Assembly (NCBI GenBank): GCA_951406725.2
Contig: OX597817.1
Span: 60,264,001 to 60,328,000, forward strand
Source of the DNA: Octopus vulgaris
Taxonomy: Eukaryota
DNA: 64,000 nucleotides
Reading direction: 5' to 3'
Position 1 is the stretch's first letter; every line of letters begins with the position of its first letter. A program made the position numbers and the translations under genes. The notes under the pieces were generated by a model, which did not search any database, had not been told where the DNA came from, and saw only the letters and a list, made by a program, of their open reading frames with translations. Below are positions 5,168-56,420 of the stretch, in pieces.

Positions 5168-5749
5168 GCATGTTAATTATGATAAATTATAATGGTTATT
5201 GACAATTTGTCTATTTTCGGCATATTTGGCATTAGAATTTTTCTTTTGCCCTTATTTTATAAGTTATTTATAAATTTAACCTTTAAAGGTATTTTTTAAT
5301 ATGCTGGCCATTGATAAAATTTTTTTCGAAAAATTTTATCCTGCATTAGATGCCAATTTAATAGTGTTCACTTCCGGACTCTCTCACTCTGTGAAAGTTT
5401 CTAGTTCGAATCACACGTGTCTCGAGATGTGCTGAAGATTTTCTAATTTGGATATATTTGGGATATTTAGGTCTGCTCAGGACTTAGTGCTTGCTTTTTC
5501 CATGAGTATGAGTAAGTATTTCATTTATGTCTTACGTATTTATCGCTGAGGAGGAGAAAATTCTTATGAATTAACTCTGAAATTGGGACCAATACGGTAA
5601 TAACGGAATTTTTTTTAGAAATTTCTATCGGCTTGTTTCGAGACGCATGTTAATTGTGATAAATTATAATGGTTATTGACAATTTGTCTATTTTCAGCAT
5701 ATTTGGCATTAGAAATTTTCTTTTGCCCTTATTTTATATGTTATTTATA
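5168..5749 (+). mobile_element. Retrozyme-like / PLE-associated non-autonomous element: 477-bp unit plus 105-bp partial second unit
   Basis: 5168-5272 repeats directly at 5645-5749 (about 4 mismatches), and the unit contains a complete hammerhead motif. Confidence 0.7.
5540..5600 (+). ncRNA. Type I hammerhead ribozyme (complete, monomeric fold)
   Basis: Stem I ttatcg/cggtaa; CUGAGGA 5546-5552; stem II ggag-aa-aattc-ttat-gaatt-aa-ctct; GAAA 5579-5582; stem III attgg/ccaat; cleavage triplet AUA ending at 5594. Confidence 0.8.
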
Positions 5750-5879
5750 TATATATATATATATGCATGTATGTATGTGTGTGAGTGTATGTACGTGTAT
5801 GTTTGTGTGTATGTATGTGTGTATGTGTGTGTGTGTATGTATGTATATGCCTATATATGTATGTGTAAGTGCGTTTGCG

Positions 5880-6090
5880 TGTGCCCCGACCTACTGCTTG
5901 ATAACCGGTGTTTATTTGTTTTCATACCCGTGGCTTAGAGGTTCGGCAAAAGAGACCGACAGATTAAGCATCAAAGTTAAGAAAGAGAAAAAAAAAGAGA
6001 AAAAGGCAGTTACAGTTCGAGTTGTTTGACTAAACCTTTCGAGGTGGTACCACAACAAGTCTGCAGTCCAATGATTGAAACGAGTAAAAG
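5880..6090 (+). mobile_element. SINE family B, 3' half
   Basis: gcttgataaccggtg...ggttcggcaaaagagaccga...gattgaaacgagtaaaag matches the full copy at 18522-18980. Confidence 0.75.
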
Positions 6091-6099
6091 GACAGACAG

Positions 6100-6357
6100 A
6101 CAGACACAAACACACTGACACACACACACACACACACATAAACACACACACACAAATACACACACACAAACACACAAACACACACACACACACACACACA
6201 CACACACACACACACACACACACACACAAACACACACACACAAACACACACAAACACACACACACACAAAACACACACAACACACACACACACACAAACA
6301 CACACACAAACATACGCACAAACATACACACACACTCACTCACACACACACACACAG
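6100..6357. repeat. (CA)n-rich microsatellite
   Basis: Visible tandem repeat. Confidence 0.95.
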
Positions 6358-52207: not shown

Positions 52208-52760
52208 TATCCCCCTACAAAGATGTCCTCAGGCAAGCAGGAATACCAAGCATGTTTGCACTCCTCACGCAAAGACGTATGAGATGGCTTGGGCATGTTA
52301 GCCGTATAAAAGATGGCAGAATCCCCAAGGACATACTCTACGGAGAGCTTGCTAGGGGTACTAGGTATGTGGGTAGACCGCTCTTACGTTACAAGGATGT
52401 TTGCAAAAGGGACATGAAGGCCTGCAACATCAATATTAGCGGTTGGGAGGCAGTTGCCGGCAACCGTGGAGACTGGCGACGTACCGTAAGAGAGGGAATA
52501 CAAAGGAGTGACAGAGAGAGAGAGAGGAGAAATGGAAAGACAAGAAAAGACGTCAACAAGAAACTATGGCATTACAACCAGCCAGGAACAGTCTTCGCTA
52601 CATTTGCGGTACCTGCCAGAGGGAGTGTTTGTCCAGGATAGGACTACACAGCCACAGCAGGAAATGTATCAGGACATGAAATGTAAAAGCCGGACTAGAC
52701 TACTTTATGCGCAACTCCATTGTCTCCCGAGACAAAAAGGATGCCAACCAACCAACCAAT
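52208..52760 (+). mobile_element. 5'-truncated RTE (BovB-like) LINE with (CCAA)n tail
   Basis: Reads RRMRWLGHVSRIKDGRIPKDILYGELARGTRYVGRPLLRYKDVCKRDMK...NRGDWR, then CGTCQRECLSRIGLHSHSRKC. Confidence 0.9.
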
Positions 52761-53664
52761 ATATATATATAAAATATAAATTAGAGATAAAAACCACTAT
52801 TATGCAACTCAAACTGTGATAGACATAAATCAATACATAAATAACAAATAGAATATAATTTTATAAAACATATAACTTATAACTAGATCTCAAAAAGTAT
52901 AAAAATGAATGATCAATATATAATAAGTTGCATAATAGTGGTTCTATCTCCAATTTATATTTTATATATACTGTGAAATTTGATTTAATACTAAATCTAA
53001 TTTTTCCCAGTAAGTTTGGAGTTATACTCCCTAATATTATTATAATTATATATATATATATACACAGATACATATATATGTATGGTGATGCTCCAGCATG
53101 GCTGAAACAAGTAAAAAATAAAGAATATATATATATATATATATACATATATACACATTATGTATGTATATATTAGTGTACAGTGAAGCTGATATTTATG
53201 ATACATGTCTAGGTATTGCTTGTAAAAGACAAAATTTGTCGTAAATGTGTGTGAGTGTATATGAGTGTGTGTGAGTGTTTATGTGTGTGCGTGTGTGTGT
53301 GATTATGCGTGTATGTGTAAGCTTGTGTGTGTTTGTAATTGAATAGACATATGAAAAACTTGTGCGTGTAAACATGTGTAGGTGTTTGAGGCCACGTATT
53401 TCTGTTGGCAATTTCAGTTTGGCAATAATTTTATTTTCGGTGCAAAACGTTTAATATCTCGAGGGCAAACATCAATGTGTTAGATTGATTAAGATCAGTA
53501 GGGGCTTACAGTTTGCAGTGCTCAAAACCCTCACGAAATGTGAGATGTTTCTATAGCAACTAGTGCTGGAAAGCGATTTAAATAATTCTCAGCTATTTGG
53601 AATCTCTTGTTACGTTTTTAAGAAACATTCTGAAATTGTGGAAAGAAAAATCTACAACTGATGT

Positions 53665-54830
53665 AGGCACAGTCATGTTTGTGTCGTTAAGAAACTCGCT
53701 TTTTAACCACGCGGCTTCAGGTTCAACCCAACTCCGCGGTACATTGGGTAAGTGTCTGCAACGCAAGCACCGGACTGACCAATGCTTTGTGAGTGAATGT
53801 GGTTACCGGAAAATATGTGGAAGCCCGTCTCATATGTATATATATATATATGTACGTATAATTGTACACGTGTGTCTGTAGTTGTGTTTGTAACCTCTCA
53901 CCGCTTGACAACCGATTGATTGGTTTGTCGGTTTGTTTGCAGCCCCGAAACATAGCAGTTTGGCAAAAGATATTGACAGAATAAGTACTACACTTAATAG
54001 AAGTAGTAGAGTGGATTTGTTCAACTAAACTTATCAAGGCTACACCCTACCATGGTTCCTTTCTGATAACTGAAACCAGATACAAAGAAGAGTTTTCAAC
54101 TCTAGGCACGGGGCATGAAATTTTTTTTGGGGAAGGGCCAATCGATTAGATTGATCCCAGTACGCAACTGGTACTTAATTTATCGACTCTGAAAGGATGA
54201 AAGGCAAAGTCGACCTCGGCAGAATTTGAACTCAGAACGTAAAGACAGACGAAATACCGCTAAACATTTCGCCCGTTGTGCTAACGTTTCTGCCAGCTCG
54301 CCGCCTTAGGCAAGAGATATAATGAGAGCAAATACAGATTACGAAGATAGATGTTAATACACGTATGAATACATAGACCTATATATGCATAGATATATAC
54401 ATTCAAGTATATATGCATAGATACTTACATATATACATACATGCACACACGTATACATTCGCTCACACACACATGTATATATCTTTTATCTTTTACTTGT
54501 TTCAGTCATTAGACTGCGGCCATGCTGGGGTGCCGCCTTCAATTTTTAGACGAATGACCAAATCGCCCCCCCCCCCAGTGCTTATTCTTTAAAGCCTGGT
54601 ACTTAATCTATCATCCTCTTTTGCTGAATCACTAAGTTACGGGGACGTAAACACACCAACACCGGTTTTCAAGAGATGGGGGCGGGGCAACCACAGGCAT
54701 AAAGACACACACATATACATACGACAGGCTTCTTCTAGTTTTCGTCTACCAATTCCACTCACAAGGCTTTGGTCACCCCGAGGCTACAGTAGAAGACACT
54801 TACTCATAGCGTCATGCCCGGATTGAACCC
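53665..54830. mobile_element. SINE cluster: B (+ 53665-54080), A (- 54095-54308), B (- 54482-54830)
   Basis: Family-diagnostic motifs as in the copies above. Confidence 0.85.
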
Positions 54831-54834
54831 GGAT

Positions 54835-56420
54835 TCCTAAATCACGTTCCAGAAAGAGTGGATAAAGAGACGCTCCTGGTTAGTTTTGACGTAACCAGTT
54901 CCCATTCAAATATCCCCCATGGATTAGGATTAGAAGCAGAAAAATTTTGGGCAGACAAATACCCTCACAGAATTCAGCAGAGATTCTTGAAAGAATTCGC
55001 TTGAAAAAAAAGCAACTTCCTCATACGTCTTGCACCAGGAATAAATGAGTTTTTCTTTGACAACCAATATTACCTTCAAATCCATGGCACTTGAAGGATT
55101 ACTGTTGGTTCTTGGAAATAACTGCTTTGAGAACCAGTATTAGCTTCAAATATAAGGCGGCGAGCTGGCAGAATCGTTAGTTCGCCGGATAAAATGCTTA
55201 TCAGTATTTCGTCCGTCTTTACGTTTTTAGATCAAATTCTGCAGAGATCGACTTTGCCTTTCATACTTTCGGGATCGATAGAATAAGTACTAGTTGAGCG
55301 TTGGGGGTCGATTTAATCGACTTAGCCCTTCGGAATTAGTTTTGATTCTATTTGGTGAGAAACTGGAATCGATTCCTGATGGCTGCTTTATATTGTAAGG
55401 AAAACCTTAGAAGATTCATTAGAATTAATTAATAACATTCTCAAATCGTTTCAATTCACCATGGAAATAAATAAAAGATGGTTTCCTGTTTTGGATATCC
55501 TGATAATTAAAGAAAATAAGATGCTTAAAACTGATCTCAGTTGCAAGGAAACGGACGCACACAATATTTAGATTTTATATCTTGCCACTCATTCCATTCA
55601 ACATGGCAAGGTGTAATATTCACGGAGGCAAGTAGACAAGAGAGACAACTGGTAGAACTAAATATATTCCTTTAGAAACAATAATAGCCCCCGAAACGCT
55701 TAGTAAATGGTATCATAAACAAAGCAGAAGAGATCTCAAACTCTGGCTTTCGGAAAAAAACATTCTAAATGAGGATGAAGAAGAAAAAAACGTAAATGTA
55801 AATATTCCAGTTGTATCCATCCGTAATTTCAGACACCAACTTAGATTCGGCCAAACGAATTCTACACCAACCATCAAAGCTCAGGAAAATAATTTAAAAT
55901 AAAAATTACAAATGATCAACAGTGGAAGACAACCACTAAATCTTAAAATACTCATAAGAAAGGCAAAAATTACACCAGAAGAAGAAATAATGCAGCTGAG
56001 AAGCAGTGGGGACCTTCATTAGGAGACTTGTGAAATAATTTAAAGAGGGGAAAGCCAAAAAAATGCCAAGAATGGGAAGGAATTGAAGGTTAATGCAAAT
56101 ATGAATTGTGAAAAAAAAAAAATTCATCTACTAATCACATGCAATGCAATGAGAATTATATCTGCCATAAGCAGTCAAAATTAATAGATCAGATTAGAGT
56201 ACCTAAACAACAAATCAACGATCATCTCTAAGAAATGTTCCTTGTAATGAACATCAGCACATTTGTACAAAGGAAAAACGATCAATTACGGAATAAAAGA
56301 ACTGAAAAACAAATTATAAGAAATCAGAAATACTGAATAGCAATACTAAAATCAACTTTCTCTATACAGAATCTGACGTGCGTGTCTGAAGAACTAAACA
56401 GTGAACGCTCTTACACACGA
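54835..56420 (+). mobile_element. Decayed Penelope-like element (RT + GIY-YIG) interrupted by a SINE A (55156-55330)
   Basis: Reads LLVSFDVTS.HSNIPHGLGLEA..FW.DKYP, FFDNQYYLQIHGT, WNRFL, FQFTMEIN...VLDILIIK...KTD...KETD, QYLDF.SCH and NCEKK..IY..TC. Confidence 0.8.
56378..56419 (+). ncRNA. Degenerate hammerhead downstream of the PLE ORF
   Basis: gtgt-CUGAAGA-act-aaac-agt-GAA-cgctctt-acac. One A of GAAA is missing. Confidence 0.45.

Follow-up and report, generated by a model that had tools for sequence, protein, structure and literature searches.

We analysed a 64,000-nucleotide (nt) stretch of Octopus vulgaris DNA (GCA_951406725.2, contig OX597817.1, positions 60,264,001 to 60,328,000, forward strand; hereafter the window), in which hammerhead ribozyme (HHR) motifs lie among relics of Penelope-like elements (PLEs). 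Six type I hammerheads were found, of which three are intact and three decayed. They are probably pseudo-long-terminal-repeat (pLTR) ribozymes of several PLE families and of short derivatives of these that carry no coding sequence; cutting is predicted to occur mainly between paired motifs or with the help of the element's protein, and the copies are likely to have decayed neutrally after insertion. The motifs are of a known kind, the PLE minimal hammerhead, and neither this class of ribozyme nor its association with PLEs is new. New here are the apparent motif density and the presence of a tRNA-like head and an (AAT)n array upstream of one motif. The window has a GC content of 37.7%, with 18% simple repeats and many dispersed repeats.

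We examined the eight sites listed in the initial annotation with a type I descriptor and a scored scan, naming each motif by the position of its conserved core. Three sites proved intact and three decayed, one was a half motif and one was rejected. The core elements CUGANGA, GAAA and UH, together with stems I and II, were complete at 3/8 sites (5546, 17354 and 34457, all on the plus strand and with every core base present); the motifs at 29403 (+), 37519 (−) and 56386 (+) were decayed, and the remaining two sites failed. The initial observation was confirmed in part: its count of about seven motifs comes down to six real ones, three of them intact, with a half motif only at 40831 and no ribozyme at 51130.

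The strict descriptor, which demanded a palindromic stem III and no fewer than 4 bp in each of the other two stems, matched three times in the window and never in the 400 local dinucleotide shuffles; because the descriptors were set once the motifs had been seen, this excess is optimistic. Intact motifs thus exceeded the shuffled controls when the comparison proposed in the initial annotation was run on the window. A loose descriptor gave four matches, adding one at 11980, against a shuffle mean of 0.107 and a maximum of 2 (400 shuffles), and bare CUGANGA plus GAAA occurred 12 times against 6.6 expected. The damage-tolerant scored scan ranked 34457 first (score 16), followed by 5546 (14), 17354 (12) and 37519 on the minus strand (9.5). 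Scores of at least 9 averaged 0.12 in the shuffles (100 shuffles), in which relaxed scores of 5–7 were common. No type II or type III motif was found in the window. Rfam gave no gathering-level match over the whole window and, at E ≤ 10, reported no hammerhead family on 34400–34600 or 5280–5740; its loose matches were microsatellite-driven microRNA only, among the 150 of 375 listed.

All three intact motifs carry G at position 10.1 and a palindromic stem III, two traits of PLE minimal hammerheads (PMC4209133), and a third trait, the extra base after A9, is present in 17354 and 34457 and missing from 5546. The descriptor placed the 34457 motif at 34452–34497 (+), with a predicted cut after 34492, a stem I of 5 bp, the extra A at 34464, a stem II of 6 bp and the palindrome AACGTT. 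The minimal hammerhead at 17350–17385 (+), likewise a descriptor match with a predicted cut after 17381, has stems I and II of 4 bp each, an extra A and AACGTT. The 5546 motif at 5540–5600 (+), also found by descriptor, has a predicted cut after 5594 (AUA), a stem I of 6 bp, a stem II of 4 bp plus an inner hairpin, and a near-palindromic stem III.

A repeat context was found for all six real motifs, so the suspected link to repeat families held: 34457 is high-copy, 17354 and 29403 form one family, 5546 lies in a partial tandem, and 37519 stands 243 nt 3′ of a GIY-YIG match. For 34457, contigs of four sequencing runs were fitted to 34382–34790, three of them DNA (organisms A, B and E) and the fourth, X6, taken as RNA by guess only and from a different animal than the DNA runs. 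Contigs fitting the segment numbered 22,805, 28,747 and 24,750 in the DNA runs, and their summed depth over the motif was 1.1–1.6 × 10⁵ times that of the unique flank. Because overlapping short contigs inflate depth, we read the family as 10⁴–10⁵ copies, likely tens of thousands, rather than by the depth ratio. This is consistent with one copy per 64 kb in a genome of 2.8 Gb, a size calculated from the supplement of PMC13282606, and it agrees with the initial suggestion that the genome may hold a very large set of ribozyme-bearing retroelements. The exact pattern of the motif gave 0 matches in viral, genome and metagenome contig collections.

The high-copy segment spans 34400–34595 (+), as judged from contig depth, loose ends and fold. 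The main 3′ end of the copies, marked by loose ends, lies near 34541–34545, and a smaller share of them has an additional piece of about 32 nt (34564–34595), with a loose end at 34588; in the fold prediction this optional tail can pair back on 34509–34517. By analogy, the two-ended pattern matches an optional PLE tail between two reverse-transcription start sites, as in PMC11167929. Core variation in the DNA runs fell at N7 (T>A, 8–12%) and at CpG sites among the variant rows listed, beyond which there are 26 more. CpG variation amounted to 15–17% at C11.1, 10–11% at G12 and 11–13% in loop 3, compared with 14–20% at CpGs outside. The core looks as if it decays near-neutrally, with no sign of extra core loss.

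The 17354 motif is carried by a repeat of about 140 nt (17337–17476, +) that ends at (TA)n. Its decayed family member at 29399–29434 (+; core 29403) reads CTGTTGA, with A6 changed and stem II damaged; the repeat and 29382–29539 share 75% identity over 175 nt and form a single family of short elements with a (TA)n end. Self-comparison placed the 5546 motif in a partial tandem at 5168–5755 (+), in which a 477-nt unit (5279–5755; 31% GC), ending at (TA)n, follows a duplicate of its 3′-terminal 111 nt (5168–5278 versus 5645–5755, 94.6% identical). This layout is pLTR- or retrozyme-like. In the same unit, the hammerhead is flanked by a donor-like GTAAGT and an acceptor-like TTTTCAG (5512–5697, +), the AG of which is missing from the partial copy upstream; judging from these sites, the interval could be a PLE-type intron containing the ribozyme.

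We next describe the PLE coding relics, two of which had been reported to carry a motif just downstream. A query from 38269–38613 found 827 relatives at E ≤ 0.001, 150 of them listed, and the listed relatives of at least 120 amino acids were used as tblastn queries. These mapped a broken RT (reverse transcriptase) thumb, cysteine linker and endonuclease start at 38161–38945 (+; 134 relatives, best E 1.5e-28), and one of them, P0088, identified a GIY-YIG endonuclease C-terminal remnant with stops and a frameshift in an inverted partial PLE copy at 37762–38023 (−; E 4e-06). The endonuclease end is inverted relative to the body of this 37.4–39.0 kb insertion, and self-BLAST showed that 38189–38295 is an inverted copy of 38917–39023 (107 nt). 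The decayed hammerhead at 37465–37523 (−) retains core 37519 and a long stem II, with stems I and III broken; it lies 3′ of the GIY-YIG match at the distance given above, and the element ends at (TA)n near 37386. Full-length relatives, matched by these two relics and by a third at 43133–43402, combine an RT with a cysteine linker and a GIY-YIG-like terminus, with the motifs visible in P0088 and P0106, and we take them to be Nematis-type from motifs that we recognised. Across 38817–39060 (+) and 38024–38290 (−), about 130 codons over two copies part the GIY-YIG halves, compared with about 10–20 residues in relatives. A Tc1/mariner transposase remnant (39190–39666, −; Pfam HTH_Tnp_Tc3_2, E 3.7e-07) abuts the relic.

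The second relic with a motif, a heavily broken RT-endonuclease at 54810–56270 (+), was recognised by eye from six-frame motifs, with an Atlas lead in which RVT_1 occurred in 19% of one cluster; it is presumably a Neptune/Poseidon-type PLE. Word-based homologue searches on three relic fragments, two of the searches made with this relic, were empty. Just 3′ of it lies a decayed minimal hammerhead (56379–56419, +; core 56386) with GAAC for GAAA and with stems I and II present. The reported placement of motifs downstream of PLE relics stands for 37519, where tblastn mapped the GIY-YIG remnant, and by eye for 56386; both motifs are decayed. A short RT thumb remnant at 43133–43402 (+; tblastn E 9e-10), 40% identical to the 38.3-kb relic, has no valid hammerhead beside it. 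A PLE-type layout, with a partial tandem or an inverted 5′-truncated copy, is represented by 5168–5755 (partial tandem) and 37.4–39.0 kb (inverted).

These features suggest the following course of events. A PLE protein would begin reverse transcription within the stem-loop that lies 3′ of the ribozyme; the choice between two start sites there would account for the optional tail. The protein would insert the copy at AT-rich DNA. Most copies would be 5′-truncated, so that the ribozyme-bearing end accumulates. Within a tandem transcript of the element itself, pairing of two motifs via their palindromic stem III would lead to cutting of the RNA; a single copy in a host read-through transcript would mostly remain uncut. 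Stem III of 17354 and 34457 is ACGU and is unable to close within one molecule. Such minimal motifs showed no cleavage as monomers and weak cleavage as dimers (PMC4209133), and in PMC11167929 cleavage occurred only with the element's protein, insertion did not need cleavage, and no RNA-seq ends fell at the site. Because of these activity data, the motifs likely served the elements' tandem transcripts, and by analogy those in the window are likely to be mostly silent as lone insertions.

Several results weigh against this account. Co-folding gave an active dimer for 5546 only, where the double hammerhead of two copies was the lowest-energy form (−30.1 versus 2 × −10.6 kcal/mol), and not for 17354 or 34457; in addition, 4 bp of stem III can form in a single 5546 molecule according to the fold prediction, and this motif may cut as a monomer. 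No autonomous open reading frame (ORF) was linked to any of the three intact motifs, and none begins in or follows the 34457 motif here. Pfam named neither RT nor GIY-YIG in the 12 relatives scanned, so their identity as PLEs rests on the motifs that we recognised. The 56386 motif scored 6.0, a level at which shuffles average 1.67 matches; taken alone it is within chance, and it therefore counts only by its position. The depth ratio at 34457 is not a copy number, as overlapping short contigs over-count, and the restriction of its core variation to N7 and CpG sites is a property of the rows listed.

The 34457 segment may also be part of a longer element. A box scan identified a tRNA-like head at 34065–34137 (+), with A-box- and B-box-like motifs at 34072–34125 on the same strand as 34457, and a repeat scan placed an (AAT)n array between this head and the hammerhead segment (34138–34399, +). 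Each box has one mismatch, neither ARAGORN nor Rfam called the head, and an inverted copy of its initial 18 nt lies just upstream at 34045–34062; the exact pattern of the head gave 0 matches in genome and viral contig collections. The head and the motif may be parts of one element, in which case 34457 would be the 3′ part of a composite short interspersed element (SINE), consisting of a tRNA-derived RNA polymerase III (Pol III) head, (AAT)n and a PLE pLTR with hammerhead and tail, copied whole by PLE proteins. We consider this a real possibility, somewhat less likely than not, and it refines the PLE origin proposed above without displacing it. Several contigs of other 34457 copies continue into AAT units 5′ of the segment, their 3′ sides have mixed AT-rich flanks, and no ORF-like 5′ loose end appears among the rows listed, which suggests that the array is internal and not the target; schistosome SINE-like elements with a Pol III promoter and a hammerhead offer a precedent (PMC6765202). 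However, the composite is seen in a single copy, with no second head in the window, the stretch fitted with contigs began downstream of the head, and the loose ends are those of the listed rows, with 970 more beyond them. SINEs here often end in trinucleotide arrays, into one of which a pLTR could have landed, and depth at 34396–34409 is only 16–26% of that over the motif.

More tentatively, an octopus tRNA-headed SINE may have captured a Penelope pLTR with hammerhead and tail and, copied by PLE proteins, may have reached up to 10⁵ copies; together with its sister families it would then make one of the densest ribozyme loads of any animal genome, and both of its strands would give rise to transcripts with A-to-I editing that extends into the core (the extra A at 34464). 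In X6, A>G or T>C was found at 14/33 variant places, compared with 3/32, 4/46 and 7/47 in the DNA runs, and the extra A at 34464 read G in 11% of X6 versus 0.1% of DNA. This pattern resembles A-to-I editing of both-strand transcripts, and allelic differences are also possible. The A>G/T>C excess of X6 extended across 34418–34522, with a maximum of 20% at 34522. The depth of X6 dips at 34480–34493, next to the predicted cut site, but this carries no weight because other bins vary as much and contigs cannot show RNA ends. No description of a PLE-mobilised SINE was found in the literature searched, which excluded subscription papers and Repbase; if true, a PLE-copied SINE would add to the known SINE-partner pairs.

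For the 5546 unit, a different origin was weighed, namely a non-LTR (non-long-terminal-repeat) retrozyme yielding a circular RNA of about 477 nt rather than a plain pLTR fragment. Its 6-bp stem I and 4-bp stem II are as in canonical motifs, its low GC and partial head-to-tail repeat fit, a dimer fold is predicted, and mussel retrozymes measure 350–390 bp (PMC7229834). Yet 5168–5755 holds 1.2 units and one ribozyme only, 477 nt is a little over the 150–450 bp range, and the (TA)n end is shared with PLE fragments. Judged by the layout of this single locus, we regard such an origin as the less likely one.

The initial annotation had further proposed that intact copies inside introns could cleave host pre-mRNAs; this found no support, and we think it unlikely that such copies cut often enough to matter. 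We scanned 150 open frames, hand-picked from 658 complex frames of at least 38 amino acids, for host exons. None was found among them, although short exons could be missed, and only a LINE (long interspersed nuclear element) RT at 4093–4605 (−) and a Tc1 transposase piece at 39190–39402 (−) scored well, leaving no host gene identified. Very high copy number, the transcription-like signs in the putative RNA run X6 and the depletion of Xenopus retrozymes in introns (bioRxiv 2026.07.22.740005) speak for such cleavage, as does the position of 5/6 motifs on the plus strand. This strand bias was, however, not significant for the six real motifs taken window-wide (P = 0.22), the loss of G12 was not above that at outside CpGs, and 4/8 listed X6 contigs, taken irrespective of strand, span the predicted cut site. 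Monomers were inactive in PMC4209133, and PMC11167929 reports neither read ends at the cut site nor protein-free cleavage. Given the Xenopus depletion, some cost of intronic insertion is possible by analogy; nothing in the window shows such a cost, and widespread cutting of host messages is unlikely.

A chance origin of the motifs within AT-rich repeats has next to no probability. In its favour, bare CUGANGA plus GAAA was seen 12 times against 6.6 expected, relaxed scores of 5–7 are frequent in shuffles, and chance does explain 51130, 11980 and perhaps 40831. Strict and high-scoring matches, however, are missing from the shuffles, which refutes a chance origin for 5546, 17354 and 34457, and neither the extra A nor the N7-only variation is required by the descriptor.

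Among the weaker candidates, 40831–40851 (+) has only a 3′-half-like motif (GAAAC, a near-palindrome and UA); the 95 nt before it contain nothing that matches CUGANGA, even with one mismatch allowed. A motif of about 35 nt occurs three times nearby (39683–39718, 39794–39824 and 40797–40834) and stands immediately before the half motif in one copy only. The 51130 site was rejected as a hammerhead: it reads CCGATGA without U4, lacks a stem II next to the core and is located at the spacer of a foldback element resembling a miniature inverted-repeat transposable element (50959–51351; inverted-repeat search; 164-nt arms, 95%, 65-nt spacer), beside (TA)n. The 11980 site matched the loose descriptor only and is likely chance; together with 43714, 9013 and others scoring 5–8 it falls within or near the shuffle range, and 43413 and 45788 (−) failed to pass the scan. 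Elsewhere in the window, LINE remnants were observed at 3200–4605 (−; RVT_1 at 4093–4605, E 9.6e-15), 442–798 (−) and 52156–52638 (+), the latter two of which we take to be RTE-like; Atlas neighbours of one LINE fragment indicated Mollusca or Ctenophora, at low recognition and not decisively. A unique, GC-richer stretch at 31900–32290 is a possible enhancer or promoter, with what we take to be an RFX X-box-like motif near 32017. There is also a direct duplication of about 470 nt (34971–35436 and 35537–36006) and a 166-nt inverted pair, 95% identical and 5.6 kb apart (19283–19448 and 25086–25251).

The intact motifs correspond to 47 per Mb (3 in 64 kb; 95% range 10–137), for one window chosen for this feature. 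At commonly quoted genome sizes, Xenopus tropicalis carries about 6 per Mb and Schistosoma mansoni about 8 minimal motifs per Mb. The axolotl, with 120,000 hammerheads (PMC7229834) in 28 Gb (bioRxiv 2026.07.22.740005), comes to about 4 per Mb. Published totals of PLE minimal hammerheads are in the thousands per genome, with about 9,000 in X. tropicalis, about 4,000 in the coelacanth and 2,000 + 1,300 minimal motifs in S. mansoni (PMC4209133), which has thousands of canonical hammerheads besides; in contrast, the 34457 family alone apparently reaches 10⁴–10⁵. PLEs make up 6.83% of the O. vulgaris genome in 190 families according to the supplement of PMC13282606, whose available text makes no mention of ribozymes. 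An Rfam scan of the giant squid gave only 235 hammerheads (PMC6962438), and Rfam misses forms seen in this window. No description of octopus hammerheads was found in the literature searched, which excluded subscription papers, Repbase and the supplement of PMC7229834. Any novelty would lie in scale and host, not in the ribozyme class, and a family of 10⁴–10⁵ copies would give statistical power to ask whether minimal PLE hammerheads cut host transcripts or ride silently.

Compared with known systems, the window motifs resemble the PLE minimal hammerheads of Cervera and de la Pena 2014 (PMC4209133) in their type I fold, short stem I, extra base after A9, G10.1 and palindromic minimal stem III, and also in occurring mostly as solo copies, in several families per genome and, for the decayed 37519, 3′ of a GIY-YIG remnant; 17354 differs from them in its stem II of just 4 bp. 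The inverted partial-copy layout drawn in PMC8557442 is common to the 37.4–39.0 kb insertion. Non-LTR retrozymes (PMC7229834; bioRxiv 2026.07.22.740005) and the 5546 unit are alike in low GC, type I motif, 6/4-bp stems and head-to-tail arrangement, but the latter shows no array of at least two ribozymes within the window. If the head at 34065 belongs to it, the 34457 element shares with the schistosome Sm-alpha/Sj-alpha elements (PMC6765202) a Pol III-type head upstream of a hammerhead, whereas theirs are often tandem and cleave in vitro and 34457 is solo and minimal with a PLE-type tail. The PAc Poseidon element of Anolis (PMC11167929) and 34457 share a hammerhead followed by a stem-loop, an optional 30–40-bp tail and AT-rich targets; they differ in that no ORF begins in or follows the octopus motif.

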